Shown piece by piece: positions 6,696-54,665 of a DNA stretch of 64,000 nucleotides. Position numbers and translations under genes: made by a program. Origin of the DNA: Cyanidioschyzon merolae (lineage: Eukaryota); assembly GCA_000091205.1 (NCBI GenBank), contig AP006493.2. One strand, given 5' to 3'. Under the pieces are notes generated by a model. That model ran no database searches. It saw nothing but the letters and a program-made list of their open reading frames with translations, and was not told where the DNA came from. Within the stretch, counting starts at the first letter, position 1; the number at the start of each line of letters is the position of its first letter.

Positions 6696-6855
6696 GCAAG
6701 CGTTTCCGATTCACCTTAGTAGCTGCCCAGCGGAACGCTGTCGCACAGGGCACCTTTGTGACGAACGGATAATGCGTCGGTGTCCAGTGCAGCGTCGGAC
6801 AGGCGCCCATCGAAGCATGCGATGCGTTAGCGTACTGCTCGCCGGCCGGCAAGAC

Positions 6856-13074: not shown

Positions 13075-15018
13075 ACAGAGGTTCGTGCGCATCGACACCC
13101 CTGATGTTTCTGATTCGTCACCTGAAGAGAAACACAGAGACGTCTTCGAAACCTGGCGTCGTCGTCGTCGTCAACAACAGCGCCCAGGAATTCGCTGCTT
13201 TAGTTTTACGTATAAACAAGCGGGTCGTTGCAGCGGGGCGCGCAACGCACCATGCCATCGAGCGAGACACGCTTCCGCGGAACACGCGCTACACATGCGA
13301 CTCAGAGTAAAAATGGAACAATGAACTGGTTGCGCTGTTGCTGCCGATCGAACTCTTTTACATATACAGCCTCAACATTTGAACTGCAGGCAAAAAGGCT
13401 TACGCGCACATATGTAGCTTTAGGATTTTCGGTCGTGTATTTTGGTGTGGATCCTTGGACGCCTTGCAACTGGAATTTGTTACGTCACCGGAATGGCGAT
13501 GATTCGCGACATTTTCGAACAAGGGTTTGTAAAATAAACGATGTCATTATTCCAACCATACATGCTAGACTCCATTCTTCTAACATCCCTATTTGTGGCA
13601 GGATGGAGCATGTATGCTTCAGGTTTCCGATCTGTCTGCCTCAAGTTCAATTGTGGGCGCAACCATTCGCGCCGCTAGACTCACGAGGAACGCAAAACTC
13701 GACGACGTCGTCGTCGCTTGAGGGCGTCCTCACGTGCTCATGCCGCAAGTCCATTTAAGTTGGCATATCGACGAAACGCCTCCAGCGGAGAGTGCGTCAT
13801 CGCATTGCTCGGAAGGAGCATGAACCGATCGAGATTTCTCAACTTGTTTTCCAGCCTGGATTCTAATTCGGATGCTTAATTCCCCATGGACCATATCACG
13901 TACCACAATACCTCCACCGAATGGAACAGCGTACTTGCCGGGGGCATCGCCAGTGAGAAGCACGTGATCGTAGCATACGACAGCGGGTGCGAAAACGGAA
14001 GAGGGTATCGACGGGAGCCTTCCATACCCGTCAATAGCGTGTAGGGACGGACACAGAAAGCCTTCACGCACCACAGGGTGACTCTCGGAGGCGAATGAGG
14101 TGCTGTGGACCTATGCAAACCCCTGAACGCCGTCAAGTGTCGCCGCTCCGAAAAGCGCACCGCAGCTGCATCCAAAGAAGATGGACATGAGAAGCGAAGT
14201 GTAGATCTCTATTTCCATCGGTCCATGAAATGCATCGACAACGGCCCGAATCTTCCACATTGGAGCTTGCACGCTGGGATCAATAGCGTTCGACCGCTGA
14301 CAAGCGGACTGGCGAGACCAGCGTACGTAAAGCCGGCGATAGCAAGTAGGACAAGGAAGCGATCGCGGAAATCGCTCGCAAAGGCTGCAGTTGATGACAC
14401 GGCGACGCTTCGCAAGCTTTTGTTTGTTCGCCCGTGTTGGCTGTGTGTGAGTTCATTCCACGCAAGTCTCGCATGTGTGTATCACGCTGCACGAGCGCGC
14501 CTCATTCGGTCAACAGGTATGCGATACCGTTGCTGAACGCTCGCTACATCCAAACCGTTCGCGGGTCCACGGGGCAATGATTTTCTTGACTCCATACCAA
14601 GCAAGTATTCGAGGCAGCCAGTACCGGGATGCTGTGCAAGTCTCCACGCCTGCCGTCGCGCCGCCTCAGCCGCTGATTTCTGTTCGTACGGTACCCTGGG
14701 ATGCACTGGTGCACGCTGTCAACCAAGGTCTGCGCAGCGTGTGCACCCATGCCACTTGTCAATCACCGGTTTGCAGCGCGTTGCAAATCCTTTCCAGCTG
14801 CACGCTGCAAAAAGCAGAACGATTCATTTACTCACAGCATACCCTTCGAGAAGAAATCTACTGAAACGGATACATACCGCTGCTGGCGGCTTCCAGATAA
14901 TACTATGGATGCAGCGGAGAAAAAAGGCACTCGCTGCCCGAAACGCGATTTCACCGACTCTGCCTCGCTACAGATGCCGAGTTACCGGGGGCATCGGCGC
15001 TCATGCGCTGCCGCCTGT

Positions 15019-17439: not shown

Positions 17440-17760
17440 ATGTTCTCGTAGAAAGATTATGGAGCATGCCACAGGGTCTGAAGTTTCTACACTCATGCTA
17501 CGAACCGCGGTTTGGAGACACGGAGGCACAATACGTCCGCCTCTGTTGAGGATTGTGATGCATTGACTACCCCGCTATCGATGACGTATGAAACGCGAAT
17601 GCTTCCAACAGCAGCGACGGGTGCTCGTCTTGCTCAGTCAAACTTCCTTCAGATGCAATGGTAGACCTGGATATGGGTACTCAAAAAAAGGGAAAACCGC
17701 TGTTTGTAAAGGAAAGACACGCGAAAATGCCGAGAATATCATCCGTCGCAGCCATTCCAT
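17440..17760 (+). repeat. Diverged dispersed repeat (family R2), copy 1; boundaries approximate
   Basis: Blocks such as cacagggtctgaagtttc and gatgcaatggtagacctggatatgggtactcaaa align with 28140-28440 (cacaggatgtgaagtttc and agaaatggtagacatggacatgggtactcaaa). Confidence 0.35.
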
Positions 17761-20478
17761 CGCATAGGCACCTCTGAATCGCCAACTAGATAGGATCCTT
17801 CAAGACATCATCCTTCGTTGAAGCATTCTTCGCGGCTTCTGCCTCGCACATACCTCTGTCCTGCTGTTGGACAACGTCGCCGTCCATCGCGAGAAAAAAC
17901 CCGGTCAAGGCATACGCAGCTGTGATTGGCGTTGAGCTGCTGATAGCACCAGCCTATGCTCTTTGGTTCAATTGAGTCGAAGGCGTCTCGTCGGTTGTCG
18001 AACGCAAGGTCAACGCGCACGGTCCAATAGACGAGTCGTTCGCATTCGCGTAAACGAATGGTGCGGGACGCCACCAGGGACCGTATAGCGTCGTACGCGA
18101 GGAGTTCTCGCCTAGCTTCTATCGCCCTGAAGCACCTCGGTAAGGAAACGTTCGTGAGCGTTACGGACGGAAGGCTGCACGCTGTGAATATTCCTATGGA
18201 ATTTTTGGATCGGCCCGACGTGCGACAGCACACTTGATGCAGGAAGTGAAGATGCGATGCAGTAGGGGGGTAGGACCAGGGATTGGCGCAGGTGCTTCCC
18301 AGAATAACTTGACACGTCACCACGCGACGTCGAAGATCGAAAAACCTAGAATGCATATGCGAAGTGCCATCAGACCAGGTTCAAGGATGCAAAGCGTATG
18401 CAGGTGAATCCGGAACGCTTCCCAATGCGCACTCTCTAAGCATTGTACGCGGTGGACCCTCATTATCGTATCGCGACAGAGAGGGCGACTGTCTGCAGGG
18501 ATCCCCAGCTTATCGATGGAGGCAAGCGACGGCCTGGTGATGTCTAAAGAGCTCGCGGTAGTACTGAGTTCTGGTTCGTATCGTCTGTGCTCATAGGGTT
18601 GCTCTCGACCTCGGACCGCCGCACATTGCATCCAAAGGACAGTGGAAACGTGATACCCACGTTTCGTGGATCTCGCGCAAATACGTTTTCCTGAACAAGG
18701 CTCCTCGACGCGATACAGACTTCCTCTCTCGATCCGAGCGTCGTATCCTCCTCAAATGACTATGCGATGTGGCCCATATTTCGGGAGATTAAGGCCCATT
18801 ATACCGCCGTAGGCGATTACCTACTGCACTGTGGAGCTTCCTCGATGGGGTACGGCCTGTCTCTGGGTATAACAATGCTGTGCTCGACCGAATTCGTCAA
18901 ATGCGGTAGCGAAGCGCGTTTATGGACGCTCGTATACTGAAAAGTATCGGAATGAATTGTACACGGACGATGAATACCAGAGAAATCTCAGTCTGAATAC
19001 AGTTCGTAAAACCAAGGCCTGACTAAAACAACAAGACTCAATTTTCAGCGGTAAGTGCAGGGAAAGACGTGGTGATACGCGTGGATCCCTGGTTGAAGAG
19101 CATCATGGCCGTCGTGGTACCTCTATATCAAGAGTGCGGTTCCAAAGACCCGGCAGACAAACAGATCAAGCTCCTCGACTTGTTCTGAGTTCAAACTGAT
19201 CGAGATTCGGGCATCACAGACGCCGTGGTGCATACCAACAACTAGAGTAAAGACTTGGCATTCATCTGGGCGGGGTCAGACCCGTGTCGAGCATCGGACG
19301 ATGCTTTGTGCGCTTCATTGCAAGAGTACGTGAGCGTGCATACGGTTCATGCAGACCATCCCTAGCACAAGTACACCAGACCGCCTTGAGGTCGCCAGCG
19401 GTTTCCGTTCTACGGAGGCATGAAGCGTGCTTTCGCGAACTTGTTCAATCAATTGGAAAACAAAATTACCGACGATTTGCTTCGTCTGGCGGCGGCTTCT
19501 CGCCCTTGACATGCTGCACTCCTGATCCTTCGACGAGAGCGTAGAGCGAATGCAGGACTCGATGCCCTACGTGTCCCGTCGAGGCATCACGACGACGTCA
19601 ACGCATCACGAGCACGGCTGCACGCTGAAACTGATGGGCGAGAACAGCATGAGAAAGAGACGGATACACGAGCTGGTGCACGTTGAGCAAGCCGAACGTC
19701 AGCTGGCGAGGTTATCGAATGTAAGCAGCTTGCTATGGCGTGATTCTACCAGCGACCGTGCGCGCAAGCACTTTCTGCCCCTGGACTTGAACACATCCCT
19801 CAACGTCTAGAAAAGCGTCGCGCTGCTGGAGCGTCCGGCGTTCTAGTGTCCAGCGAGCTTTTCAGACACGGAATCGTTTCGTCGTTTCTATAGACATTGT
19901 GCTGAAATGCCGGCGACTAGAAATGGAATAAACCAGTGTTCAGAAGAGAGGACACTGGCTTTCCGTATTGAGTAAGGCATTGGTGGGCCATGGTCCAGCG
20001 ATCGAGAAATGCTGAAGCGTGGTATACTTACTCCGGGAACATTTCTCCAAGGCAATTGATGAATGTTCATGATCTCCCGCGATTCGGTATTACTGAGTAG
20101 AGCATGCCCACGCGCTGGCGCTGTAGCTAGGTGCCTGTAACGAAGAGAGCGCCGTCGCTCCCGTTATCTTTGCCAGCGCTCCAGATCACCTGATACCCCT
20201 GATTTCCTGCATACCAATCTACAAAACGTCTCTTTTGGCGCAGAAACCTATTCGACTATATCGAGGTTTTGGTGTGGAAGCAAAACGTATCCGCGTCCAG
20301 AACTGACGCATGGACATCGATTGGGTTCCAAGCGTACGCGCAACACATGGACAGCGTTTCGTTGCTCAGGCACGATACGAATCCAAAACCGCGTACGCAT
20401 ACCGAGGATATCTTGGGGATGCGCGCTGAGGCAGCGGCTGCACTTAATGCACTCGGCACACATAACAGGAGGCTTCAA

Positions 20479-28139: not shown

Positions 28140-28440
28140 ACGATCAAAGAAGGCACAGGATGTGAAGTTTCCGTTCCGTTGATGCAAACGTCGATGAAGA
28201 GCCGCGGGTTGTCGACGAATCAAGCACGATTGTATGAAATACCGTCGCGCGTTGAACAGTACTCTGTCGATTTCGTCATGAGACAGGAACGCTTATTACA
28301 GAAGGAACAGCTTCCGTTTCACTCGATGGGACTTTATCCAGAAGAAATGGTAGACATGGACATGGGTACTCAAAGAGCGGCAGCACGCTGCTCGAAGAGA
28401 CGAGGCAATCGAGGATTCCGACGACATCTGCACGAGCTGC
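28140..28440 (+). repeat. Diverged dispersed repeat (family R2), copy 2; boundaries approximate
   Basis: See copy 1 at 17440-17760. Confidence 0.35.
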
Positions 28441-29036
28441 GATGCGATCGTGTGGTCGCCTCCAAGTCGCCAAAAGAACAGGATTGATCGAGGCCTTGTC
28501 GTTCCTCGAAGAACCCCTCGTGGCATGCCCTTCCCATATTCTTCCGTCTAGCGCTTAGACATCGTCGCGTTCCATCACTAAAAAACGATAAGAGAGCAAG
28601 CGACTGAGATTGACGCTGAGAAGCTCTGTGCCAGCGTATGCTCTCAGTTTCAGTGCAGTTGAAGGCGGCTTTACTGTTGTCTAACACGATTTCCATACGC
28701 ACTGACCCATAACGAGGTCTTTCGCGTCCGTAACACCGCTCTTTGACAACGTGTTCTTCGGCAGGTTTTCCTCTACATTCACCGCCCGTAAATTGCTTTG
28801 TTGCTTGACTGGACGTGGGCGGAAGGCAACGGAGAGGCGTGCTGGGGTTCATTGGCCTCTTGGCGATAGATTAGGTGATGGTAATGTACTTGACGAATCG
28901 TAGATACGTATGTGGAAAAATCGAGTTTCAGTGCCATCGTGCATTCGTATGCGTCAGAGTCGCTGGGAAAACAAACGTAGAGAGAGCCTAGCGGCCGTAA
29001 ATCTTCGATCCCGCCACATAAGTAAAGACGCGAAGA

Positions 29037-29478
29037 TTGAGCTAGTCTCTGAGAGCAAGTATGAGACGTTCAAGCTACCTCACGACGATACTTGGCGGAG
29101 ATCGTGCAAGGTGCCTGGGTCACGCGGTGGAGTAAATACGAAATCTCATGGACGATAAAGACTGGTAGAACCTCAAGATGTATGCACTCTGTGAGACCTC
29201 GGAGAGTGCCCAGCAACCAGGCACATTTTCAACCGATCAACAAGACGAGGAAAATCGAGCGCATTGCATAGCACTCAGTGTAGGCATTGCGCTGAAATGC
29301 TCCAGACATGCGATTCAAATGAGTTGCTAGAGCAGAGCCGCCACAGGCTTCGCGCCTCAAGCAGGACACTAGTAAAGAACGGTTCAGCAATCTAGAACAG
29401 CTCGAGCGTCGCGTACCTACTCCGGAAAGGGTTTCTTATGCGATAAGCAGTCGGCCATGGTGCTCCACGATTCTATAC
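29037..29478 (+). repeat. Left arm of a ~445-bp inverted repeat pair
   Basis: Reverse complement matches 37953-38395 with about 10 mismatches by eye, from gctagtctctgagagcaagtatgagacg to gtgctccacgattcta. Similarity ends abruptly on both sides. Confidence 0.85.
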
Positions 29479-29904
29479 GACTGAATGTAGCAGGGAAGCA
29501 CATGCTACCAGGGAAAGCTCCAAAGTCCAATGAAACGATCATTACGAGCGCTGCCGCGTTCGCTCAGAACATTTCCCAAACGTGGTTCGAATGAGCTGCC
29601 GCTCCCCCGTAGCTGACCCCAACAAGCCGTCCTCAGTTGCCGCGAGAGCAGGACCTCGCGCTCACGCAGATATATGTATGACAATCAAGATGAAGATGGA
29701 GCCTCTGAACCTGTCCAATTCAGACGCTCGTGAGAAATTCCAAGTCAGATGATAGCAAAGCGTTTTCCTTGGGATATGCAGCCGGTTCCATCATAGCACC
29801 AGCCGCTTCTTGCTCGCGAAACCGTGTAATCGTTGTTGAAGATACTGGTACACGCTAGATTGCGGCAGTTTGTATATACAAGTTCATACCAGTGCGCATG
29901 CTCA

Positions 29905-31968
29905 TCAACGATCGTTATCGTCGGCTCGAACAGGATCGATCCACCAGCGGCTCGCATTGTCTTTGCGATCCTCGATGTGAATCGCACCTAGTCGAAACAA
30001 AATATCATCGCGCAACATATCACTCAAACCGTAGAGTGCCTCGGTGGCCTTCTGCGTTGGCTGTGCTGTATCCTGCCGTAGCTGCTTTGCGAGGTTGCGA
30101 ATACGCATACGAAAGTCAACCAGTGCCGCGATAAACGCTGTCGGCACGCGTGATGCAGATGCCTGCGCGTTTGCACTTGAAACTCCCGGAATGCTCTGAA
30201 AGCCCAGGAGACGCAAGATACTCGCGAGGTACTCGCTAGCGACAAGCACTGCGTTGTGCTCTACAGCGTCCATGCGATCAAGGCGACGTCCGCTTTCGAA
30301 ACGATACAATTGGTTGGTGAATTCTACAAGAGCCCGCACAGCTCGCGGAAAGTCGAGGTCATCCGCAAAGGCTTCTGCGAGTGCCCGGTGACATCTCTGA
30401 GACCATTCCGCGAGTTGTGCTGGGACTTTGCGTCCGGTTGGATTCCTCGGAATCGCAGCTTGTGTATGACTCGAGCTAAAGACATCCGGCACTGCGTCAA
30501 CATCGGCAACATGTTCACCAGAAGCTACAGCGAACGACGGCTGCCAGTGCGTGCTCGGAATGTCTCCCTCTATGGATGCGTCCGCAGTTGCAATGGACTC
30601 TTGACCAGCGACACTGAGAGCTCTAGATGACTCTTTGCGAGACTGCGAACGCGCGTCATTGGCTATTCGAGCCAACCAGCCAGTCAGTCGATCCCAGATA
30701 CGTGCCGCCTGCAGTCGCTGCGTGTCACCGAACTCAACCGGAGTGCTGTGTCGATGCATTGCACAGAACATTCGAAATACGTCCGCTTCTCTGCGTATGC
30801 GCATCAAGTCATTCGGGCCTTGTTCGCTCCATCCCAAATAATCCCTAATGCGCCTGGAGTTGCCACGTGATTTGGCCATTTTCTCTCCTCGAATCAGGAG
30901 CGTGCCTGTGTGCATCCATTTTCGGCACCAGGGGCGTACCCGGTGATAACACTCGCTCAGATGCAATTCATTCTCATGATGAGGAAATCGCAAGTCCATA
31001 CCGCCGCTATGCAGGTCGAGATGTGTACCGAACACATGGGCACACATTGCGCTGCACTCAATGTGCCAACCTGGTCTGCCGTAACCAATGCGTTTCTGAT
31101 CATCATTGGCACCATCTGGTACGTAAAAAGGCCAACCAGGCTCCTCGTCCGTTGCTGAGACGGCCTTCCAGAGCGCAAAGTCAGCAGGATGGCGTTTGCC
31201 AGGGACGTTGTCGGCCGCTGGTGTGTTTGCGGCGGTTTCAGTGGCGGTACCGGCATGACTCGCGTCAAGCGCCCGACTGGCATCAAGAACGCCGTACCGA
31301 GACTGGACACGACTAGTATCAAAGCAAACGTCTCCTGATGTGGTTACATAGGCGTATTCCGTATCGAGTAGCCGCCTTGTAAAGGCGCAGATCACCGGTA
31401 TATGCTCGCTAACCCGCAGAATATGAAGCGGCCGCAGTACTCCAAGCAAGTCGAGATCTTCGAAGAAACGCTTTTCAAAAATAGCGGCAATTCTTGAACA
31501 CGTTTGTCCAATGGACTCGTTCGGTAGTCGTTGCTGGCGAGCCCGCTCGATGATCTTATCATCGACATCCGTCACACTCATTGCAGTTATTGGCAAACAC
31601 TGGTACCATTCCCGGATGACACGACGCACCATATCGAAGGTAACATAGGTTCGAGCGTGTCCTAAGTGAGCGTCATCGTATACAGTCGGGCCGCACTGAT
31701 ACCAGTAGAGCGGTTCACCGAGAGCTGGCAGCCACTGCAGGCGTCGCTCACCTGGCAGCGTGGATGCCGCGCTCGTGCCAAGTGGGGTGTTTGTCGGGCT
31801 GAAGCGCCGCACCAACGTCAAGTGGTACGGCTTTCGATGCCACAGGCGGGGAACTCGCACACGGGGCATTGCTCGTAAGCAGATGACGACGACGACGACG
31901 ACGCGGGAACGGCTTCCAGCGTGAAGCTCACTCCGCCTGAGCGCCGTTGCCAGCCTCGACGAATGCAA
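29905..31968 (-). CDS. Cysteinyl-tRNA synthetase (class I) with an N-terminal extension
   Basis: HIGH region WYQCGPTVYDDAHLGHARTYVTFDMVRRV. Zinc/Cys-binding GWHIECSAM. KMSKS as KMAKSRGN. N-terminal ~90 aa are R/S-rich and include VVVVVV encoded by a (GAC)n repeat at 31889-31909. Confidence 0.9.
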   Translation of the reverse strand: MHSSRLATALRRSELHAGSRSRVVVVVVICLRAMPRVRVPRLWHRKPYHLTLVRRFSPTNTPLGTSAASTLPGERRLQWLPALGEPLYWYQCGPTVYDDAHLGHARTYVTFDMVRRVIREWYQCLPITAMSVTDVDDKIIERARQQRLPNESIGQTCSRIAAIFEKRFFEDLDLLGVLRPLHILRVSEHIPVICAFTRRLLDTEYAYVTTSGDVCFDTSRVQSRYGVLDASRALDASHAGTATETAANTPAADNVPGKRHPADFALWKAVSATDEEPGWPFYVPDGANDDQKRIGYGRPGWHIECSAMCAHVFGTHLDLHSGGMDLRFPHHENELHLSECYHRVRPWCRKWMHTGTLLIRGEKMAKSRGNSRRIRDYLGWSEQGPNDLMRIRREADVFRMFCAMHRHSTPVEFGDTQRLQAARIWDRLTGWLARIANDARSQSRKESSRALSVAGQESIATADASIEGDIPSTHWQPSFAVASGEHVADVDAVPDVFSSSHTQAAIPRNPTGRKVPAQLAEWSQRCHRALAEAFADDLDFPRAVRALVEFTNQLYRFESGRRLDRMDAVEHNAVLVASEYLASILRLLGFQSIPGVSSANAQASASRVPTAFIAALVDFRMRIRNLAKQLRQDTAQPTQKATEALYGLSDMLRDDILFRLGAIHIEDRKDNASRWWIDPVRADDNDR
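31889..31909. repeat. (GAC)7 microsatellite, in-frame within the CysRS N-terminal extension (poly-Val on the minus strand)
   Basis: gacgacgacgacgacgacgac. Confidence 0.8.
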
Positions 31969-32289
31969 CGAGCAACCAGGAGCGCGACCTCTGCAACTAG
32001 AGAAACACGAGCTTTTAACGTTTCAACGGCAGAATATGAACATAAGCAGCGTGAATGTGAGTGTTAGGCAGTACAAGTCTGTGTGCTCGCAGAGACAGCC
32101 TCAGCTGAAACAGCGCCTTTGAATAAGCAGGTAAGTTGCATCTCATCAACGCGTCGTATCTGCGAAGTCTCATCCGGCGATGTACACCTGGTTCATCGTA
32201 TCCTTCGGCAGCGTTCTTGTTATCGCCAGTGCATAATCCATCTAAACAGATATTTTAGTCAATGGGTTCCCCACCTGGGCACATGCAGT

Positions 32290-33761
32290 AGTCATTGTAT
32301 ATGTCATTCTCATGCGTTTTTTACTTCCATCTGCGACATGTATCGTCTTTCAACTTAGTTTCGCGTCAACCCCCGCTGCAGTATACAGCAGGAGATCGGT
32401 ATCGGGATGCAATGTATCTTAGCGGTCCAATATGCGTCGTCTATCGCATATATCCTTTACGGAACAGTACCGGAATGACTGCATTCCTTATTCAGGTCAG
32501 TCATACCTCAATATTCTTATGATTGAGGAACACCTATAGAAACAAGTACATGCTTCTCATGTCAAAACCGATATTCTCATAGCTTGCTTGCGGTCTCTGG
32601 TATATAAACGACTCGTTGATCACCGTGCGGAAAACAAAAGCGACGATCGTAGCCACTAAAGGCGTCTCTGTTTCTCAACAGTACGTTCGCGTGGTCCTGA
32701 AAACACTGGGGTACAGTTGCAAAAAAGGGTTCTAGTTCTTGCACAGCCATCCCTAACCGAAATCGGTACTACTGCAGTATTCTTGGAACGTCACGATCGT
32801 TCTGAAGAAGAGAAGATTCGGTTTATTTTTCAGTCGACGAGACCTTCTTCGAACGAGACAGTTGGAGCTTGTATGGGTATTCGCGGAGTAGGAAGCCCGT
32901 TCTACGTACAATCGAGCTCGACGAGAACGACGGCATTCTCTGTTCTAGCTGTAGTGAGCTCATTTGGCCGCCTCAGTTTCGCTAGTAGAGAAGGCTCATA
33001 CACCAGCATCAACCCCTTTGTCGCATCATTGAAGACTTTTCCCCGACGCTCGGCGACGTCCTCTCACAGGACACCGTGCATTTGAGAATTCTCGTTGCGT
33101 TCGAGCGTTCACCGATGGTATCGGGGCAGAGCTGCGTATCATGCCCCCGTACATGCCGTGCTTCATTCCTATCAAAGGAGTCTTTTCGATCGTTGCATTT
33201 CATGATAGCTGCACTCTTCGATTCGCTGAAGCGTTCAGCACACAATGCCACACTAGGGCGCATTTCGTGTTTCTTCCGCACGTTCATCTACCTCAGGGAA
33301 CGTCCTCACCTAAGGCCATAACAGAGAACGTTTATTTCCAAATAAAAAAATCCAAGGAACGAGTTAGAGTGTGCACCTCAGAAAGTCGACATGGAGAGAA
33401 GGCCGCCGAACGCTTCGGGGATAGAAAAGCACAGAGAGCTGACACAGTCGCAAATGCCCCAGAGGGCCCGAGTTCGAGGATTCCTTTCATCGGAGCGTTC
33501 CACCAGCTGCAATGAATGCATCAAGTTCGTGAACCGAGACTTGTAGCTGCTTTCAATATCAGACGATATGCGGTGCTGAAGACGAGGCCCGTAGAGCTGA
33601 CGAGATACAAATCTATGGAGCAGCTTCTCATGCTCGAAGCTAACAAGGAGAAGCCCAAACAGATAGCAAACGGCCAGTCCAAAATGACGCGGGGGTGTCT
33701 GTACGTCGGTATTCATTTACTACCCACCATCGTAGGATGATCATTCGTTTTATCGATGACG
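32290..33761 (+). mobile_element. Fanzor/TnpB-like element copy C, an internally deleted (non-autonomous-like) derivative that keeps the leader and the 3' part
   Basis: 32290-33000 aligns to the copy B leader (51610-52330). 33170-33761 aligns to copy A 2230-2945, including a RuvC-III remnant KFVNRDL / VAAFNIRR split by a frameshift at 33523-33570. About 1.4 kb of the nuclease core is missing. Ends ...tatcgatga at 33759. Confidence 0.55.
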
Positions 33762-33807
33762 TTCTTCGCCGCCAGAAAACCTCTGCCTCTGTTGCCGTCC
33801 AGTGGCG

Positions 33808-34884
33808 ATGACCAGTTCCACTGAAAAGTTACAATCAACAGAGCAACCGGGGCAAGCAAAGCTCCGCGTACAAAAGCGAGAACTGGGTCAGACTGGCTTA
33901 CGAGTTTCTGTTGTAGGCTTCGGAGCATCGCCGCTCGGTGGCGTTTTCCGTGAGGACATCGACGAAACAGACGCCTGCGCTGCCGTGTACCAGGCTCTGC
34001 ACGACTTTGGCATTAACTTTTTCGACACTTCTCCGTACTATGGAAGTACTCGGTCGGAACGTGTCCTCGGAAAAGCGCTCGCACAACTCGGTGAACGAGA
34101 CGACTACGTTCTCGCGACAAAGGTAGGCAGGTACGGCCCGAACAACTTCGACTTTTCCAAGGAACGTGTTCGGCGCAGCGTGGAGGAATCCATGGAACGC
34201 CTTGGTGTTCGGCGCTTGGACCTGGTTCAGTGTCACGATGTAGAGTTCGCACCGTCCAGACGTTTAATCGTGGAGGAAGCGCTCCCGGCCCTGTGCCAGC
34301 TGAAACAAGAGGGGGTTATCGGCGCACTCGGCGTAACGGGTTATCCTTTAGCTATCTATCGCGACATTATCGAGGCCAGTACCGTGGAGCTTGATGTCGT
34401 GCTAAGTTACTGCCATGGATGCCTCTGTGATACGTCGTTACGCGATAGCGGCGTGCTCGCGTACCTCCGAGAGCAGAACATTGGTGTCCTGAATGCATCT
34501 CCGCTTAGTATGGGGTTATTGACGCCGGACGGTCCACCTGCATGGCATCCGGCACCACCTGAACTCAAAGCGTGTTGCCGAACTGCTGCAGCGTGGTTAG
34601 CAAGTCAGCAAGTGAATGCGGGTATATCCACAGACCTGGCAGAGGTTGCGTTGCAGTTCGCGGTCCAGCGATTCGCTCAGGACGACGTGGCGAGCACCCT
34701 CGTGGGCATCGATGGCACGATAACACTGAGGAAGAACATGCAGGCCTTGGCAAAGCCTCTAGACGATATGCTCCTGAAGGGCGTCCAGGAGATCCTCAAA
34801 CCAGTTCGGAACGTTGGGTGGGAGTCTGGACGACCGCGTTCCGAGTGGCTGGAAGCTGCACCAGGGGTCCGAGAGTCTGCCTAG
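33808..34884 (+). CDS. Aldo-keto reductase closely resembling plant L-galactose dehydrogenase
   Basis: LGQTGLRVSVVGFGASPLGGVF, INFFDTSPYYGST, QCHDVEFAPS, VLSYCH, NASPLSMGLLTPDGPPAWHPAPPELKAAC, TLVGI and ILKPVRNVGWESG track the L-GalDH sequence motif by motif as I recall it. First ATG at 33808 (the track start at 33802 is GTG). Confidence 0.7.
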   Translation: MTSSTEKLQSTEQPGQAKLRVQKRELGQTGLRVSVVGFGASPLGGVFREDIDETDACAAVYQALHDFGINFFDTSPYYGSTRSERVLGKALAQLGERDDYVLATKVGRYGPNNFDFSKERVRRSVEESMERLGVRRLDLVQCHDVEFAPSRRLIVEEALPALCQLKQEGVIGALGVTGYPLAIYRDIIEASTVELDVVLSYCHGCLCDTSLRDSGVLAYLREQNIGVLNASPLSMGLLTPDGPPAWHPAPPELKACCRTAAAWLASQQVNAGISTDLAEVALQFAVQRFAQDDVASTLVGIDGTITLRKNMQALAKPLDDMLLKGVQEILKPVRNVGWESGRPRSEWLEAAPGVRESA

Positions 34885-37652: not shown

Positions 37653-37952
37653 CGCAGTCCGCTACAAAGCGAAAGTTACTGTAAGCGTTAAAGATGCACA
37701 AGCACGGACGCCGCTGAGGGCATGTGCGCGAACCCTGTCTGCTTTATACATAAAATTCAAGGATCAATGCTTGGACTCGGCGCGCGATCCTGCGATCACC
37801 CGGCGATGAGGGCGGGAAGCACACTATTTGTGACAAGATAGAACACATATGTATATACCAACCCTGTGGAGAGTCTCCGCAAAGCATTCAGGTACGGCCA
37901 CGCTCCCCCAGCGACAGCTAAAGTATATGCTTGTTGCACGTATATACCGTTG

Positions 37953-38395
37953 TGTAGAATCTTGGAGCACCATGACCGACTGCTTATCGCATAAGAAACC
38001 CTTTCCGGAGTAGGTGCGCGACGCTCGAGCTGTTCTAGATTGCTGAACCGTTCTTTACTAGTGTCCTGCTTGAGGCGCGAAGCCTGTGGCGGCTCTGCTC
38101 TAGCAACTCATGTGAATCGCATGTCTGGATCATTTCAGCGCAATGCCTATACTGAGTGCTATGCAATGCGCTCGATTTTCCTCGTCTTGTTGATCGGTTG
38201 AAATTGTGCCTGGTTGCTGGGCACTCTCCGAGGTCTCACAGAGTGCATACATCTTGAGGTTCTACCAGTCTTTATCGTCCATGAGATTTCGTATTTACTC
38301 CACCGCGTGACGCAAGCACCTTGCACGATCTCCACCAAGTATCGTCGTGAGGTAGCTTGAATGTCTCATACTTGCTCTCAGAGACTAGCCGTAGC
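37953..38395 (-). repeat. Right arm of the ~445-bp inverted repeat pair (partner of 29037-29478)
   Basis: Reverse-complement identity with the left arm; see that feature. Confidence 0.85.
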
Positions 38396-40411
38396 TCACA
38401 GTGACGGTCGCGCACGACACAAGTGCCTGCGGTATTATAATGGGCCCTATTCGGACATATAGGGACAACGTTCTATTGACGCTTGAGAGGGGTGGAGCGT
38501 TCGGATTCGGGCTGCGCTTTTGCTTGTCTCTGGCATGTATACTTTAGGAACACATAGAAGCGCAAGACGCAAGGCAGACAGGGAGACATTCACTGTGTTT
38601 CGGGCATGCGATGGATACGTTGTCCGTCGGCTCGTGTCCGAGAGCAACTCGATATGTCTGGATGATATAAAGCGAGTCTCGCTCTCATTTGCGGATATCG
38701 TCCGAACTCGTTACCAAATCAATCTCTTCCGCCGACACCTCGTTATTTGTCCCGATCGACAGCCCATGAATGCCTTCCATCCGTCCCAAATTTTCTGCGC
38801 CCGTCCGGATAGGCCACAACGGATGCAACGCCCATAGAATGCGCTCGACGTTGACCCACACATGGTTGAGGTTTCTGAGGTTCATCTGATAGCTTCTGTC
38901 ACCTGTGCAATAGATTTTTGGGGTCGCAAATGTGGTACGGCGACCTGCCGAGGTATGTTGGGAATCTTGCAGGTAACACGCTGGCCCTATAATCAGACGG
39001 CCTCGCGTCTGCTATCCCGCGCATCAGTTGTGTTGTTGTACTAGGCTTGGATCCAAAAATCTCTGAGGAATATGCTCAGCCGGCTGCCCTGCATCTGGTA
39101 CCCGTGTGAACACTTGCTTACGAGATTTTCCAAGACGAGAAGAGCTAGGGGAGCCTTCCTGGCATCATGTGGTTTACGATCCCCAACGACGTCCTGCGTT
39201 TTGCTCTTTGAAACATTCACCCCGTTGACCTGTTTCATTAATGAAGGTCTTCACTGCGGTTCAGACCGATCTTTCCGCTCCGTGTGTCTTCGCTCCCTGT
39301 TCTTCCTAGTTCGCTTTTCGGGGGAATTTTTCTCTTCTTCGACCGATGGTTTCCGTTTCTTCTCCTTTAGCTCGCGGGGTGGCATGAGTGGGTTCGCTTA
39401 ACACCATACCCATTTTGTTTCCCCGACGGATTCATACGCATTGCGTGGAAAGCACAACGGAAGCTCACATTGTCTGTATACGTACACATCAACTATTCGT
39501 TGCGTCCCCTTTGATTATCTTCTCTGTCGCGAGCACGCTCCGGCACCGGGACGCGCTTTTCCGCTCTCTCCCGCACATGCGCAGAGCATCAGCAGAGTAG
39601 TTCAGGGTTGTCGACGACAGAGTACGATTTCCGGAACACCAGTGTCACGCATGTGAACAACTCGTCTAATGATACTTGAGCGAAAATATCGAGATTCACA
39701 GTGCTGAGGACGCCTTCGACGAGGCTGAACTAGGGAGAACAGACCGGCAAGAAGAACAGCTTTCCGCCAGTCTCATCTGCGTCATACTCGACCATTTTCT
39801 ACACAAAAAAGTCAGTGCCGGCTACAATCAGGACTCAAACGTATGGGAAGGGGCTGCCACGAAGTGCTTCCAGGTAGGCTGAGGTGTCAAGCGATCCTAT
39901 TCGTCCAGCACTTCGTGGGCGAGCACACGATCGCATCACAGCTCTGACTCGTGTCGTTGTCCTTCTCGATAGTCTCTTCTTCACCAACAGCGGGTTGTCT
40001 CTCTACGAATACGCATATGCGTCTCTGCCGTGTTTCCCAAACCAAGTTGCACGGGAGCACAACGTCCCTGCTTGGGCTTTCTGTAACAGCTACGCTACAA
40101 GAATCAATTCGGTGGCACTGCATCCCAGGCTTCAACCCGAAATCTTCAAAGAATTGAAGAGTCTTCTACCTGCGACCATGTGTTTCCAGATAATCCTACA
40201 GTTTTCGTTTCCACCTTCGCTGGCACCAGAGCCCGAGTTCTCCGCATGGCACCCACTGAAGACCCTATGAGCATCGAAACCGTTCTTCGCTTGAGAGTGA
40301 GCGCGCGCGAGTACGCCATACAGCGTCCACAGTCTCGTACTGTCTTTTGCAACTGGCTTCCGCTGCGACCTCTGTTGGCTAGGAACGAGCGTCACGAGTT
40401 TTATGTACTGA

Positions 40412-45046: not shown

Positions 45047-48000
45047 TGGTGCAGCCGGTCCTGGTTCGCGCCAAAGCGTAGCTAGATCTTTTGCATTCAC
45101 AGGACTGGTATGCTTCAGCTCATCGCGAGGTTTGCGCAGTGCTCAAGGACCACAGAGGACCTTGGTGTGCGTTAGTGATGCTTTGCGTGCATCTCGTCTT
45201 TTGGACTGGAGCCTTTTTCTGGGACGGACAGCCTCGCTGCATCAATGTTGCTGTTGAGCGGAGCAATCCGTGGCACACTCTGGTCTTGTATGATCGACGC
45301 TTGTAGGCAGGTCTCCTCTCGTGGTGCCAGCACGATCGCCGAGGGCACTTCAGCAACAAGGTCGTCTATTTCGTGGCGGTATTCTCGAGCACTCGACAGG
45401 ACCCGATAACTTGTTCCTGATACCGACACCCTGCTTTCCTTAAGCACATGCTCGTTTTTGAGAATGCGACATCTGCGTCTCTGGTGCTTTTTCGTGCAAT
45501 GTAGAATCTATGCATCTGTCGATAATTTTGCTCTGGAAATGCGCGCTCCGGCGTGGTGTTGATGCTGGTTAACAGGATCCGGTTTTTTATGTTGCAAAAT
45601 AAATGAGTCTGACCAGAACTCCACGAAGGTGCAATTGCTATTGCTAATCAGGCTAGACAACAGTGTCGCTCGTCAGGCACGCCCACCTTACCCAAACCCA
45701 GACCTGGATTTTCGTCGGGATTAGAGACGAGAACGATACCGTAATTCTTCGGATGCATGGTTACGTCCAGTGCGTGACGCTGTAATAGCAGTTTTATCTG
45801 GGTCCGCCTAGTCTCCTGCAGTCAACATCCGCTCACAGGGACCTGGTGTTCACCATCGCTCGCTCATTGCCCGAGACGCTCCGAGTGTATTGGCGAGCAG
45901 GTTTCCCCAGCATACATGTGCCAACCGCAATGCTCGTGAATCCACCGCCACAAGTAGATCAAGTGCAGCGACCTGGAGATCATCCTGCTCGATGAGCGAT
46001 GCTCCATTTTCAAGCTGATGGATCGCGATGGCTTGCTTTCTCGTTTCTTCAAAAATGTTAGGGATCGCTCGCATCTCGCTTTTGTTCAAACGAATGCCGT
46101 ATGCTCTGCATTATCCCGGATGAGCTAAGACGGGTTCCAAGCAGTCGGGTAGGCGCGTGTGCGTCTCCTGGGGTCCTTGGAAGATGCAAAGGCGCAAAAT
46201 CGCTCCTGCAGCGAAGCACGGTTGGTGACATTCATGTCCTTGCGCACGAAAGAGACGCACAAACCTGCAACGCCCTGGATACAACCCTGCTGCACAATGC
46301 TGAAACGTCCTGCTCTTGAACTCGAGCCGATTTCGTTGTGGCAATTGGCAACCCGGGTCCGCCTGAACGCAAGCAGCATTGTTGTTTCTCGACACTGCGG
46401 GATCAAGCTTCGAGTCGTGCTTGATCGACCATTCGGAAGAGCACAATGAGTGCGAACCAATCTGGCTGCTTGTTATCGAATCTATCGATCTGGGCATTCT
46501 ATCCAGGTCGTGCTTCGATTCGCAACCTGAGCGATTTGCTGAAAGAAAAGCGTCAGTTTCAGCGCACCGAACGAGAAGGGCAACGCATCCCAGATGCTTT
46601 ATACACACGGAATAATATCGAATAACGGAACACCGTTGTCGATCAGGTATTGCCCAGGAAACCCGTTCCAGGAGTGTTGATAAATAGACAACATTCGAGC
46701 CTTTCTGAATTTCCGGACAGTGCCACATCAGCTCCTGCGCTCATTCATGAAGCCAATACCCTCTATCCTGGCCACGAACGTTTCTCTCGCAAAGCTTCAG
46801 ATTTTCAGGGCAATGCCTGTGCTGCGTACGAAACCATTGCATGGAAAGTTCGCTCGACACAAAACTTCTGGACGCTCCGGACGCAAGAGATACTTCCAGA
46901 TATTGATTGAGGCATTCAAGTACAGGTGCAGAAAGTGCTTGTGTGCTTGGTTACTAGATGAATCACTACGTAGCAAGCCTCTCACTATCGTTTTCACCGC
47001 CATTTGACGTTAGCTCACATTACTGGACACCATACCTCGCATCCATCGCTATCTCACGCTTCCCTGTTCTACCAGTTTCAACATGCACCCGTGCTCTTGC
47101 TGCGTGTATGTCGTCTTGAAGCCATTGACGGCACTCGAGCGATGCCGATTCCCGCATTCGTTGTATGCTCTCGTCGATAGCGGAGGAGGTTTTGCTAGCA
47201 CGTTACAAAACGTCCAGTTCCATAGATTACTTTAAAAAAGACATGATTCATACCTCATTTCCATTTCAAAATCATTACAGGAAACGGAGAATAATCGGTT
47301 CTCGCCTCTGTACAACTGTAACTAGTGACGACACAGACACCGTCGTACGCTCTCCTGCCCGAGATCACCTGCATGAGCTATTTGAACACTCAAGTACATC
47401 CGGGATGAAGTACACAACGCACTTATCTCTGCTTGATAAGCTGCCCAGAGTTTCTAAATCGGCCTTGAAGTCGTCATACCGCCAGGCGGTATGCCTCCTG
47501 GCAACCAGAATGACCGACTCCAGATGATACAACGCTTTGGAACAAGAGCGCTGCTTCATCTGCTGTACATTCAGGTTGATGGATCGGTCCTCATGCGTTA
47601 TCGCGTTGGCGACGGTCGTGGTATTCATAGTCCCGGGATCCACGCTCATAACAAGTCGTTCTCTTGATCTGGATTCAACCCTTTTGAAAATGAGTCTTCG
47701 TGCTCAATTCAGACCTAGATTTTACAATGAATATGTAGAACGATATTCCATCCGCCCCTATGGTCCATGTAAACAAGAAAACTAAAACGAAATTCACCCA
47801 CGCGCTTCGCGAACTTGTGCCAATGCTTCGTGCTCGCTCGTCGAAACGAACACCCTCTTCTTTCCCTTTGCTCGGCCGGATGGTATGGATTTGGTCGTCG
47901 TACCTTTTTTTCCGTATGTTTGCCTTGTGATTCAGATGCACGAGACCAACGGTGGCAATGAACCTTGCCTTTTCTACGTATGTTTGTACCTGCAACGATT

Positions 48001-49257
48001 CCAGTGCATTTTCATCAACTTCCGCTACCCGCGCACGCGCACACAGACCGATACGCCCCCTTTCGCATGCTCCCGCACACGAACTGACGAGGAACATACC
48101 AGGATAAGGCTGTCGAAGGCAGAGAAAGCCTTGGCGTAGAACAGTGTCAAAGATGTGAACCGCTCTTTGCCTGCGCGTCGAGCACGAAAATGGCGTAACG
48201 GTAACAGCGGAGACACCTTCGACTGGATGGAGTCACGGGGGAATACACTGGCACGAATAGCACCGCATTGGTACTCTAAGCTGCGCACTCCTCATCCTCT
48301 TACGCGTCACGGAAAGCTACAATATCTAGCAGTAGGATAGGAGGAGACGAGAACGAAAAAGGTCATGAAGCGTGCTTCGATAGAGGATGATGTATTGATC
48401 GATCCTGCCGGTTTGTTCATTTTATTCGTGTCCACAAAATTGAATCGTCGCATCGGCGGACGTTTCTGGAATGCTTGCATGTTCCTTCTTTACGAAGAGC
48501 AGCTCGAGCATGTTTAAACACCTGTACACATCTCTAGCATGTGTGCCAAATTAGATGTCATCAAAAGTGAGAAACACGTGTACCACTTGATAAGAGCAGT
48601 CGTGTTTTCGTTCGAAATCTGGAGTGTGTTATTCAATGCCCAGGGCGCTCCCGCAGAAGTGTGCTTTTTCCGCAATGCGTCCGTGTCTCTTCATCGCCAT
48701 CCATATAAACGGCACGAACTTGCACAACCTGTTTCAATTTCACTAGATTTTTTTCATAGAGAACGTATGTAGTGGAAGGGATGGACCAGGACACAATCGT
48801 ACAATTAGACTTTTACATGTTCTAGTTTCGGTGCACAACGTCCAGGATATGGGCTGCGATAGCCTGGTGTTTCATGCACCCGCTAAGCATAGAATGAACG
48901 ACTTGCACAAGGAAGGCCGCTATTCCGCCAGCTACCAGCTGGCAGCATAACGTCTCCCCACGACAAATCTCTAATTTCCGGGATAAATGTTTACTGCAGA
49001 ATACATGCAAGAAAAACAAGAGAAAACAAAAAGTTCGTGCACATACCTGTATTTCATGATTGAATGCCCTGCGTAGAACGACCAAGTGTCATGCTCCGTA
49101 CGCCACGCGAAACAACCCAATACCCCGGGCGCCAAAGTGAAAACAGCATCATCCAAGCGAAGCAAGACGTTTCCGTGTTCTCTCACCAGACGCTAAATCC
49201 CAGCATCCTGGCAAGAAAGTAGAGCAACACTTTTACACTGATGTTGCTTGCGAAAAA

Positions 49258-51609: not shown

Positions 51610-54542
51610 GGTATCGTCTAGGGAAAGAAAAACGGAATTCGATGACGCGATTTGTCCAGCGTTGCGCGCGAGTCGCGAAACGTCGTCCTTCAGCTGAATT
51701 CCGTTCCATACCCGCTGCGTTGTATCACAGGAGATCGAAATCCGGATGCAATGTACTCTATAGATCGTGGACGAATTGCCTGAAGGACATATATTCCTTA
51801 CTGTACAGTGCAGGGGCGACTCTATTTCTCCTCCGGGTGAGCCTTAACACAGTATTCAGATGCGTGAGGAACGCGAAAAGAAAGAATCAGATGTGCTCCG
51901 CGTCGAAAACTAACATTCTCAGAGCGTGCTTGCGGTCAATGGTAGAAAACGGACCATTGATCACCGCATGGAGACCAAAAGCGACGAAAGCAGCTACCAT
52001 GGGTGTCTCTGTTTCTCAACAGCTTGTTCGCGTGGTCCTGAAATCACCCGGATAAAGTCGTAAAAATGTCCAATCTCATTCATAGCTATCATCTACCGAA
52101 ATTGCAGCGACAGCGTTCCTCGAACGTCGCTGTCGGTATAGAGCACAGGGACGTCGATTTGTTTATTCAGTCGATGATGGCTCCTTCGGATGACACGGTC
52201 GGAGCGTAGACGGGTATTCGCAGAGAAGGTGCCCGTTGAATGTGCGGTGGAACTCGAACAGAACGACGACATCAACTGTTCTGACTGCAGTGGATTCTTT
52301 TCCCAGCCTGAGTGTCGCTCATAGAAATGGATATGCAAGTCGAGGATCCCAGAGGCCCGGTGTCGCCTGCTGCCGGAAAACGGAAAGCTGTACCTAGCAA
52401 AGGGGAACAGGAGAAGACCAAGATGCAGAAGTAGGATGCGAAGCGTCAAAAGCAATTCGAAAGAAGACTGTATGACTAGACGGTGGTGGGAGCCTTGCTT
52501 CTAGGCGCTATCAAGGACCACTACCAGCGAGACTTGTAGGAGGCCATGAGAAACGTTTTCGTGTCTTACTCCAAGAAATGTATGTAACGCTTGTTTAGAA
52601 ATGAGGCATTTGGTCGAGTTTTACAATGACTCACGGACATCAACACAGTCGCGGTTCCGAAGGGATTTTTCAGCAGGATCTTCATTCGTCACCTGATGCT
52701 TGGAACAGGGAAATCTTCGACGAAAAATGAGGGAGTACATGCTCTCCAGCAAAATTACGCCCAATACCGCTTCAGCGGCATTCGAGACAGGGACGACTCA
52801 GATACTTACACGGATGATGCAATGAGGAACCTCACGCACCCGAGGAACTATATGATCGTGAAACTCGTAAGTTTCATGATACGCTGCATCATTGCGCTGT
52901 ACCCGGGCCTCTCTTGCAGTGGGATCCGGGCCATCATCAACGACATAGTACACGATCTCCGGAATGAACGGAAGATCGAAGTAGTCGACAAGAAAGACAT
53001 CACGCAGGAGAAGGAATGAAGCATCTGTTTCTCGTGCGACTATTCAAAAGTACCGTGCGGTTCTGGGGCTGGCGAATCCAGCAGAAAAGGTATCAGGTAT
53101 GAAAAAGGATGGTATCATCTCATCCTAAGCTACTTCGGATACCTGAACTGAGAACGAGTACGCCAGACAGAGATGGAGCTGAGTTCGGCGAAAAAATGAG
53201 TTGGAGAAACGGAAGGCTGCGCTTCTGGGGAAGCGCTTCAACGTCGTTCCGTTGTGCACCGTCAAGTCACACTCTGTGACTATCGACTCCAGAGTCCTTC
53301 ACGGCATCATGAAGAAAGAACGTTTCGAGCTCGATGTTAGCAACAAGGAATTCACGGGTGGAAACCAGGAGACGTACTGGAAGAGTATTTTCGATTTCAG
53401 ACGTCTCAAAATGAGCAAGAAAGAGGTACTCACTGGAGTAATCGAAATCGATGGAGCAGCCATGTGTGTACACTATCGGTGCTTCAAGGAGGCGGATCGT
53501 CCTGATCTGTCTTCGATATCGCACTTGGTGGAGCTTGAAGAAAACAAAGAGACGGATACTGCGACGCAGAAGGTACAGAAGAACGACTTTGTCATTGGCG
53601 CTGGTCCCGGGAACACGCAAATCGTTACCACGACTGCTCCCAAGTATGAGGAAGATGGCGCTGGTGGCAACTTGCGTCAGAAAGACATGCGACTTTTGAG
53701 GTTCTCAACAGCGAGATATTATCGAGAATCGGAAAAATGAATGTGAGGAAACAATTTGAGACATGGAATGCAGGAGTGAAAGCGCATTTGAGGCGATCAG
53801 CCAGGTGACTAGCCGTGGAGCGAGCTTTGGAGCTTTTCGGGTATTCATGAAAGTTAGCGTTCCTCACTGGAGAGCGCTGTAAAAAGAGTATACAAAGCCC
53901 CAGTGGGCTCGTCTGCGTGTGAATCTGTACTATGGGAAGCAGCGTACATTTGCCAACTTTTTCAATGAGTTGAGCGCCTTTAACAAGCACAAGGGTCAGA
54001 GGCTCGTAGTATCACAGCGAGCATGATGCTGGATGGCCCAAAAAGGGACTACGCCAGCTCCAACGTCAAGAACGTACAAGGAGTGTGCACGGCGTTTTGT
54101 CAGGATACCGATATGTGAGTACCGAACGTCATACGTGCACCATGAGCTGGGGTGTACACTTCAGAGGGTCGAGCGGGAAAAGTGCCAGCGGGCCCTGAGG
54201 ATCTGCTCAAGTACGGAGTGCTGACGGGGCAGGAAATGGCACGGATGGCATGTGTTCGAGGACTACTTGCATTGGTGATTACAACCAATGGCAAGAAACG
54301 TGTGGAGTTCTTGAACAGAGACTTGAACGCTGCTATCAATATAAGGAGATGTGCGGTGATGGAGAAGAGACCTGCAGCTCTAACAAGAGAGAATTTTGTG
54401 GGAGAACCTCTCAAGGTGGAATTATATTTGAAAAAGTTGAAACTAGAAGTAGGCGGCCGGTCCAAAAAGGCTGAAAGGCGTCATCGCATGGACGTCCATT
54501 TACTCTCCATGGTTATGATACATATTTGCTGCACTATCGGCG
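51610..54542 (+). mobile_element. Fanzor/TnpB-like element, copy B, degenerate
   Basis: Leader 51610-52326 aligns to copies A and C. ORF fragments 52327-52431, 52630-53019, 53201-53740, 54033-54224 and 54152-54679 are co-linear with copy A. Ends ...ctatcggcga at 54543. Confidence 0.55.
52327..54480 (+). pseudogene. Fanzor/TnpB-like RNA-guided endonuclease gene relic
   Basis: RuvC-I-like [16 protein letters not shown] at 53582-53629, with the catalytic Asp replaced by Gly. ARYYRESEK then stop. AFEAISQVTSRGASFGAFRVFMKVS. Zinc-ribbon remnant YRTSYVHHELGC. RuvC-III FLNRDLNAAINIRR at 54308-54349. 1-nt deletion relative to copy A near 54190; multiple stops between 53020 and 54030. Confidence 0.55.
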
Positions 54543-54665
54543 ACCGGGCAGCTTGTGATAGCTTACGTCTCAGAGAGGCTTGTGAAGGTTGTAATACTGT
54601 TTTAAACTTTTTACTGGAAAGGTTTTCGGGGATCACTTGCGCAGTGCTTCGTTTTACGTGGAGCG

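Follow-up and report, generated by a model that had tools for sequence, protein, structure and literature searches.

The window analysed here, a 64,000-nt stretch of chromosome 11 of the red alga Cyanidioschyzon merolae 10D, contains three related repeats, copies A, B and C, which are decayed, pseudogenised members of the known CMe-1A/WSV486-like Fanzor1 family of this organism. Comparison of the window with itself places each of them on the plus strand. The surrounding genes were identified by exact matches to annotated C. merolae 10D proteins; ten long open reading frames (ORFs) are identical to such proteins, including MSH4, CMK206C, a U5 small nuclear ribonucleoprotein (snRNP)-like protein, an L-galactose dehydrogenase-like (L-GalDH-like) aldo/keto reductase, CMK215C, a GPAT-like acyltransferase and a Band 7 protein. 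The C. merolae genome is known for its near absence of introns, and because it is almost intron-free, long ORFs are good proxies for genes.

Copy A (1-~2990, plus strand) is of the full-length type and is cut by the window edge; downstream of it lies MSH4 (BAM80563; 3550-6294, plus strand). Copy C (32343-~33760, plus strand) is a member of a non-autonomous subfamily of ~1.4 kb. It is situated between two divergent genes, the organellar cysteinyl-tRNA synthetase gene upstream (CysRS; BAM80571, 654 aa; 29905-31869, minus strand) and the L-GalDH-like gene downstream (BAM80572; 33808-34884, plus strand). Copy B (51683-~54544, plus strand), the fullest copy inside the window, lies between the divergent GPAT-like gene (BAM80575; 49258-51279, minus strand) and a calmodulin-like gene (BAM80576; 54562-55570, plus strand), which has its ATG at 54666 and its transcript 5' end at or upstream of 54562. 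The first-pass annotation had described three plus-strand copies located upstream of, and co-oriented with, host genes, and this description holds with small corrections to the coordinates. Its distances to the start codon (46, 123 and ~600 bp) are close to the ~46-62 bp found for copy C, ~122-137 bp for copy B and ~560 bp for copy A. The CysRS start had been put at 31968, which is no more than the upstream limit of the ORF (a TTG); the true ATG is at 31869. Copy C does lie in the divergent CysRS/L-GalDH gap but does not fill it, since it makes up ~73% of the 1938 bp and the 473 bp next to CysRS are unique sequence.

How much can be concluded from three copies? Because copies B and C both sit between divergent genes, their co-orientation with the downstream gene is automatic, and the weight that had been placed on it has to be withdrawn. 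With a null probability per copy of 0.44-0.5, an outcome of three out of three has a p value of ~0.09-0.13. The three window copies by themselves are not significant for the pattern, and the wider family has to be considered.

For this purpose a sample of related loci was used, consisting of the best 80 of 163 protein-match hits in metagenome contigs of environmental C. merolae, retrieved by protein match only. The genes flanking the 80 loci cluster with 10D proteins from many chromosomes (alpha-tubulin is identical), and the CysRS-copy C-L-GalDH region recurs in four environmental contigs at 99.3-99.4% identity, with copy C at the same site. Thus, the loci can be treated as a genome-wide sample of C. 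merolae populations. The environmental strains are too similar to the window, at 99.3-99.4% identity, for a test of constraint on copy C to be informative.

The ends of copy A were set by comparison with these loci. Copy A begins within module W, whose last ~490 of ~650 bp are inside the window (1-488); a Fanzor1 pseudogene (489-2920) and a type-3 tail (2921-~2990) follow. In copy B, module X (51683-52325) is followed by a Fanzor1 pseudogene (52324-54495), 5'-truncated at the position equivalent to 743 of copy A, and by a type-2 tail (54496-~54529/54544); positions 743-2923 of copy A align to 52324-54495 of copy B at 73% identity. Copy C starts with module X (32343-32994), continues through a family-specific middle (32995-33358) into a Fanzor 3' fragment (33359-33709) and closes with a type-2 tail (33710-~33746/33762). 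It matches copy B at 68% over 32343-32994 (51683-52330 in B) and at 64% over 33359-33726 (54144-54509 in B). Loci L013, L045, L056 (twice), L065 and L078 have the same layout (module X, a middle of 365 bp, a Fanzor 3' end of 370 bp and a tail of type 2), and copy C therefore represents a non-autonomous subfamily and not a single deletion.

What protein did these elements encode? Three-frame translation of copies A and B yields a decayed ORF of ~740 aa, in which stops and frameshifts are placed differently in each copy; the longest open stretches are 304 aa in copy A, 185 aa in copy B and 160 aa in copy C. The decayed ORF carries three TnpB/Fanzor RuvC motifs, including a (V)DEFRTS-like motif and NRDLNAAINI. 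Among its frameshifts and stops, copy A retains remnants such as NRDLSAAINI, and in copy B the RuvC-I aspartate is replaced by glycine (D->G, GAGPGNTQ). There are 29 close homologues in a large protein collection (47-65% identity), with a precomputed assignment to DUF8286. Intact relatives have the split RuvC triad D...E...D, with motifs that include NRDFNAAINI, and the window copies keep remnants of it. One remoter homologue, P0030, carries PF07282 (Cas12f1-like TNB zinc ribbon, E=2.4e-8), and alignment of the family to P0030 by hhalign gave a probability of 99.8% and E=1e-27 over 511 columns, with the catalytic D/E/D residues aligned. Just upstream of RuvC-I the ORF contains a 75-nt (25-aa) unit that forms a variable-number coding repeat of 1-4 tandem copies, for example at 1952-2027 in copy A, at 11278-11499 in L013 and at residues ~385-470 of P0001.

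Characterised Fanzor1/TnpB nucleases, such as Fanzor1 of Spizellomyces punctatus, have a split RuvC triad and a non-coding region at the 3' end of the gene. The C. merolae family resembles these known systems in having the D/E/D triad in the C-terminal half of the protein and a non-coding 3' region that reaches the right end of the element. However, the canonical C4 zinc ribbon (PF07282), which lies between RuvC-II and RuvC-III, is not present. Its cysteines are replaced (THHELGC...KC...LALVST), such that HH..C..C and LALVST are found in place of two CxxC motifs, and the family has an insertion of ~40 aa; the zinc-ribbon fold may persist with other ligands. PF07282 was not detected directly, there being no Pfam match for the ORF fragments, the frameshift-repaired 737-aa protein or the intact homologues P0001-P0004, and sequence and profile searches of the Protein Data Bank (PDB) gave no significant match to any solved structure. 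A model built by AlphaFold2 from the 29-sequence alignment was unusable (pLDDT 35). The C. merolae family also differs from the characterised systems in that its guide RNA is putative and the window copies are pseudogenes.

The family itself has been described before under two names. CMe-1A is a Fanzor1 family of ~150 copies of ~3 kb in C. merolae, without terminal inverted repeats (TIRs) or detectable target site duplications (TSDs), and its 5' 635 bp also exist as a separate repeat, TE-N2_CMe (Bao & Jurka 2013, PMC3627910). The 253 WSV486-like elements have a mean length of 3.2 kb, account for ~5% of the genome, are transcribed and were described as "distributed randomly" (Nozaki et al. 2007, PMC1955436). 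Our elements agree with both descriptions in the organism, in the length of ~3-3.2 kb, in the truncated TnpB/Fanzor1-like ORF and in a 5' module of ~635-650 bp that also stands alone. They further agree in that copies are ~80% identical to the consensus, a few ORFs are intact, and TIRs and detectable TSDs are lacking. In the sampled loci the elements are 2.9-3.2 kb long and modules W and X (~650 bp) also occur by themselves; TIRs, TSDs and a 5' target motif were looked for at the ends of module X and none was found. The assignment to CMe-1A is made by agreement with the published description rather than by alignment to the Repbase consensus. In the two papers the classification is given as unknown and the distribution as random. 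Neither mentions a polar position ahead of genes, several different 5' modules and 3' tails, or a non-autonomous subfamily of ~1.4 kb. Thus, the element is already known, and what appears to be new is its polar placement at gene starts, of which we found no mention in the literature that was searched.

Two other kinds of mobile element were considered and rejected. Helitrons are characterised by 5'-TC...CTRR-3' ends, a 3' hairpin, insertion between A and T and a Rep/helicase gene. A hairpin of ~10 bp does precede the 3' terminus of the C. merolae element; however, at their 5' ends the elements have TAGTC or TCGTC, with flanking bases that vary, and the 3' end is ...GAACGGCGTT(TGGTG), not CTRR. 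No Rep/helicase was seen among the called genes of the loci, in a search that was not exhaustive. A non-LTR or SINE-like retroposon mobilised by a resident LINE would share its 3' tail with a partner reverse-transcriptase element, end in poly(A) or a simple repeat, and show 5' truncation and variable TSDs. It was rejected because there is no poly(A), the type-1 tail is never found on a reverse-transcriptase element in 1 Mb of loci and TSDs are not detectable. Matches to the type-1 tail lie next to Fanzor 3' ends in 60 of 64 cases, the other four being inside composite 5' modules. Copies that are 5'-truncated and copies that consist of the 3' end only exist among the sampled loci.

Across these loci, the position equivalent to 489 of copy A is a sharp junction in all copies, upstream of which the 5' modules differ: W is ~650 bp (copy A), X is 646 bp (copies B and C) and there are at least three others. 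The 3' tail also comes in at least three kinds, with type 1 in most copies, type 2 in copies B and C and type 3 in copy A. Type 1 extends ~87-95 nt past the alignment anchor and type 2 ~40 nt. The anchor is located ~45 nt after the stop codon, which gives a non-coding stretch of ~135 nt for type 1, and a divergence profile shows the 3' boundary to be sharp at ~+82 to +90 from the anchor. The ~135-nt stretch is conserved and offers four or five possible hairpins. Dead copies are in the majority: at least 550 codons are open in only 5 of 61, and bodies are ~10-15% diverged from the consensus. A type-1 tail is also present inside one long 5' module (~1.25 kb), ~750 bp upstream of the Fanzor body (L012 389-458, L030 4394-4455, L043 468-516, L053 1253-1306), which suggests a tail-to-head composite of two elements that has itself been propagated.

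Do the elements have a preferred position relative to genes? In the sample, 109 element 3' ends were located, and the merging of allelic contigs by flank similarity left 78-81 sites. Dispersed repeats were masked, non-overlapping ATG-to-stop ORFs were taken as genes and the nearest gene was recorded on each side. At 53 of 72 sites (74%), the gene at the element 3' end presents its own 5' end, with p=7.6e-5 against an expectation of 0.5 and p=6e-7 against a null of 0.44 that is weighted by the repeat-free intergenic lengths of the same loci. The bias is stable when the ORF cut-off is set at 100 aa (57/74), 150 aa (53/72), 200 aa (52/70) or 300 aa (48/66). The element 5' end, taken as an internal control, has a gene 5' end opposite it in 27 of 47 cases, a proportion that is not significant. 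Within 150 bp of the element 3' end there is a start codon at 35 of 72 sites, versus 5 of 47 for the element 5' end (Fisher p=1e-5), and in divergent gaps the 3' end is the one nearer to a gene in 16 of 20 cases (p=0.012). Distances from the anchor to the ATG cluster at 81-260 nt, so that start codons fall ~0-170 nt past the type-1 tail; in the median, element end and ATG are ~95 bp apart, compared with a median divergent gap of 618 bp. As a functional class, promoter-targeting transposons are marked by a significant excess of insertions near gene 5' ends relative to the intergenic space available, and the 53 of 72 seen here against a null of 0.44 is such an excess; it may reflect targeting at integration. 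The first-pass annotation had called for a family-wide test of position and orientation, and the lack of enrichment that would have spoken against its proposal was not observed. Polar, promoter-proximal placement runs counter to the published "random" distribution.

The neighbouring genes include SMC1, alpha-tubulin, cytosolic CysRS, DDX56, a KTI12-like gene, a DnaJ/zuotin-like gene, eIF4G and an RsmB-like methyltransferase. They match 10D proteins, and Pfam domains start at residues 1-4 in SMC1, tubulin and the KTI12-like protein; the neighbours are distinct, genuine genes with correct N-termini. At L069 (5423-11340), a shared region is flanked by two Fanzor copies placed back to back, and each 3' end points at a different ORF of 646 aa. 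Of these two ORFs, the one at 11367-13307 encodes cytosolic CysRS. In the window, an element (copy C) likewise lies upstream of the organellar CysRS, but there it is the 5' end of the element that faces the gene.

Where do the host transcripts start? The contig L090 (SRR29605858) maps to 54562-54708 and 55147-56055; because it is spliced, it is derived from RNA, and it puts the 5' end of the calmodulin-like transcript ~20-30 nt beyond copy B. Since this end lies just past the copy, the core promoter of the calmodulin-like gene is probably contained in the tail of B. Two probable RNA contigs of the L-GalDH-like gene (L091 and L092) begin at 33656 and 33691, inside copy C, and one of MSH4 (L093) maps to 3378-6881, its 5' end being ~390 nt after copy A. 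Relative to the ATG, the eight short contigs of cytosolic CysRS begin at -52 to -124 and the element ends at ~-18; the four Logan contigs of SMC1 begin at -150 to -211 and the element ends at ~-49. The probable RNA contigs of L-GalDH, SMC1 and cytosolic CysRS thus begin inside the last 60-210 nt of an element. The contigs that start at 33656, 33691 and 3378 come from the run series of L090 and a single JGI sample; with each end 136-186 nt ahead of an ATG in a pair of convergent genes, they look as merged transcripts would. Host transcripts appear to start in or at the end of the element, and the earlier suggestion that the copies supply promoter or 5' untranslated region (5'UTR) sequence gains support from the 5' end of L090 just past copy B and from the probable RNA starts inside copy C and inside the elements upstream of SMC1 and cytosolic CysRS.

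Has the element been directed to gene starts, or have copies elsewhere been filtered out? The least-diverged half of the copies faces gene 5' ends in 16 of 18 cases and the older half in 9 of 16 (p=0.05), and the distance to the ATG is not correlated with the age of the copy. In Cyanidiococcus yangmingshanensis, the syntenic gap between the GPAT and calmodulin genes is 441 bp long and contains no element. The C. merolae gap has ~530 bp of non-element DNA, split roughly 3:1 by copy B, and given these two lengths the proximity of copy B to the calmodulin-like gene is not due to later trimming. The intergenic DNA flanking copy B is too diverged from the Cyanidiococcus gap to be aligned and to pinpoint the insertion site. 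The age data and the empty site lean towards oriented insertion near the transcription start.

We therefore favour, as somewhat probable, a model in which the element integrated in a fixed orientation close to transcription start sites (TSSs) and its outward-reading 3' end now drives the neighbouring gene. Integration would prefer the TSS-proximal leader of a gene and be oriented with that gene, so that the 3' end of the family would land a few tens of bases upstream of the start codon and point in the same direction. The terminal ~100-200 nt would read outward, probably from an ancestral guide-RNA promoter; a promoter is proposed at the right end because a guide RNA must be transcribed across this end of the element. 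The host gene would then be transcribed from within the relic or just after it, and the relic would provide the core promoter and part of the 5'UTR. The broader proposal, that Fanzor1 right ends, ancestrally a guide-RNA unit, have been co-opted after oriented integration in the TSS region as core promoter and 5' leader of some hundred genes, including SMC1, alpha-tubulin, CysRS and eIF4G, is possible, and we advance it only tentatively.

Several observations weigh against this model. Neither a transposase nor a TSD or target motif was found. Tandem gene contexts are the only ones in which orientation is informative by itself, and there 12-13 copies are co-oriented and 5-6 anti-oriented, which is not significant (p ~0.14-0.17). 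Genes were called as ORFs, and the sample was drawn from environmental strains and not from the 10D assembly. For copy A, the distance is ~560 bp to the MSH4 ATG and ~390 nt to the probable TSS. The tail is more diverged from the consensus (0.18-0.22) than the body (0.10-0.15) and thus shows no extra conservation. In a hand-drawn tail structure with five helices, 85% of the cells are paired, and in slid controls 34-56%; its covariation, however, does not exceed that of shuffles (157/500), and RNAalifold on 33 tails gave just one long-range stem. The tail hairpins show no significant covariation, which leaves the guide RNA putative. L090 is the sole certain RNA contig; one DNA (megahit) assembly also breaks inside an element, and the contig ends other than that of L090 could therefore be assembly breaks.

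The serious rival is random insertion followed by selective retention of sense copies in front of genes, the host promoter being replaced by the outward-reading 3' end and the spacer being trimmed by compaction. All copies are old (~10-15% from the consensus) and mostly pseudogenes (5 of 61 with at least 550 aa open), which would have left ample time for filtering; the genome is extremely compact, and the data on promoter use fit this explanation equally well. Yet purifying selection on random insertions should deplete, and not enrich, sites within a few bases of a start codon. It is the least-diverged copies that show the strongest bias, and the distance to the gene does not shrink with age; the ~530 bp around copy B are not shorter than the 441-bp empty gap and give no sign of trimming. 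We consider retention unlikely, although it is the alternative that deserves the most attention.

The guide of a TnpB/Fanzor nuclease derives from the flank beyond the right end of the element. It could accordingly be supposed that homing copies persist where the 3' flank, as the source of the guide, is a 5' leader or start codon that the host cannot vary. Such a constraint would account for polarity of the 3' end only, and at several sites, for example L061 and L067, the start codon does lie within the first 20 nt after the element. However, gene 3' ends would serve as well and are not favoured (19/72), nearly all copies lack a nuclease (copy B lacks even the RuvC-I aspartate) and the guide RNA is itself putative, which makes this explanation improbable. 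It is more improbable still that the pattern is a product of chance, geometry or method, arising from ORF calling or contig breaks. The window alone, with p ~0.1 and the automatic co-orientation of copies B and C, would allow it, and genes were inferred from ORFs; but the bias persists over cut-offs of 100-300 aa, the neighbours are bona fide genes with correct N-termini, the element 5' end is unbiased and the loci were retrieved by protein match only. The identity of the element, its polar association with genes, the short distances, the empty site in Cyanidiococcus, the sister genus, and one RNA 5' end are established; promoter activity, its origin from a guide-RNA unit and targeting as opposed to filtering are inferred.

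Transposons that target gene 5' regions are known from several eukaryotes. Ty3 and TRE5-A of Dictyostelium insert upstream of Pol III genes, and Tf1 of Schizosaccharomyces pombe and the P elements of Drosophila insert at Pol II promoters. The C. merolae elements resemble them: in a compact genome, coding DNA is avoided by insertions that lie tens to hundreds of bases ahead of a transcription unit. In contrast to these retroelements and DDE transposons, which have known tethering factors, the C. merolae element bears a Fanzor and has no known transposase; furthermore, its association is polar, involving the 3' end only, and concerns protein-coding genes. TldR is, like the C. merolae family, a TnpB relative tied to promoter regions (PMC10705468). 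However, TldR is a nuclease-dead protein that is guided to promoters as a repressor (PMC10705468), whereas in C. merolae it is the DNA of a dead element that seems to act as promoter or leader, and no function of the protein is implied.

C. merolae is a model "minimal" eukaryote, and its largest class of repeats, ~5% of the genome, has so far been described as randomly scattered and of unknown function. If these Fanzor relics are placed in a polar way at gene starts and hold the transcription start sites, a few per cent of its promoters would be derived from transposons, which would matter for the choice of promoters in genetic engineering. A bias in the insertion or retention of a Fanzor/TnpB element would be documented in a eukaryote, giving a handle on the movement of elements without a known transposase. 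The outward-reading guide-RNA end of an OMEGA element would represent a ready-made promoter for co-option by the host, and such co-option would have taken place, essential genes included, within one of the most reduced free-living eukaryotic genomes.

The RNA contig L090 also corrects a gene model. The calmodulin-like gene has a first exon at 54666-54706, an intron of 440 nt (54707-55146) and a second exon at 55147-55570. The GenBank model of BAM80576 (116 aa, start at 55220) is missing the first exon and the intron. The spliced product of 154 aa is an exact match to the RNA contig and agrees with the 154-aa Cyanidiococcus orthologue. C. merolae is reported to have just ~26 intron-containing genes, and the corrected model adds one more intron to the genome.

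Scans of the window for Rfam families and tRNAs found nothing. The window holds further repeats. Two inverted repeats of 449 nt each (29041-29489 and 37941-38389, 96% complementary) flank a block of 8.45 kb with CysRS, copy C, L-GalDH and a bromodomain gene; they do not belong to the Fanzor family, and the sampled loci do not contain them in multiple copies. A tandem array at 6777-7335, with ~7 units of 79 nt that are up to 98% identical, occupies the gap after MSH4, by a Pam16-like gene, and contig L093 terminates within it. Six dispersed intergenic repeats (17613-18048, 28331-28725, 19522-19856, 46842-47177, 39842-40029 and 13356-13581) share 65-70% mutual identity and are also found in several metagenome loci. 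The convergent gap between CMK215C and the GPAT-like gene is 699 bp in Cyanidiococcus (L114 4878-5576) versus 4.2 kb in C. merolae (45047-49257), where it holds a dispersed repeat and a conserved 205-aa ORF (46111-46728, minus strand) that is unannotated at NCBI.

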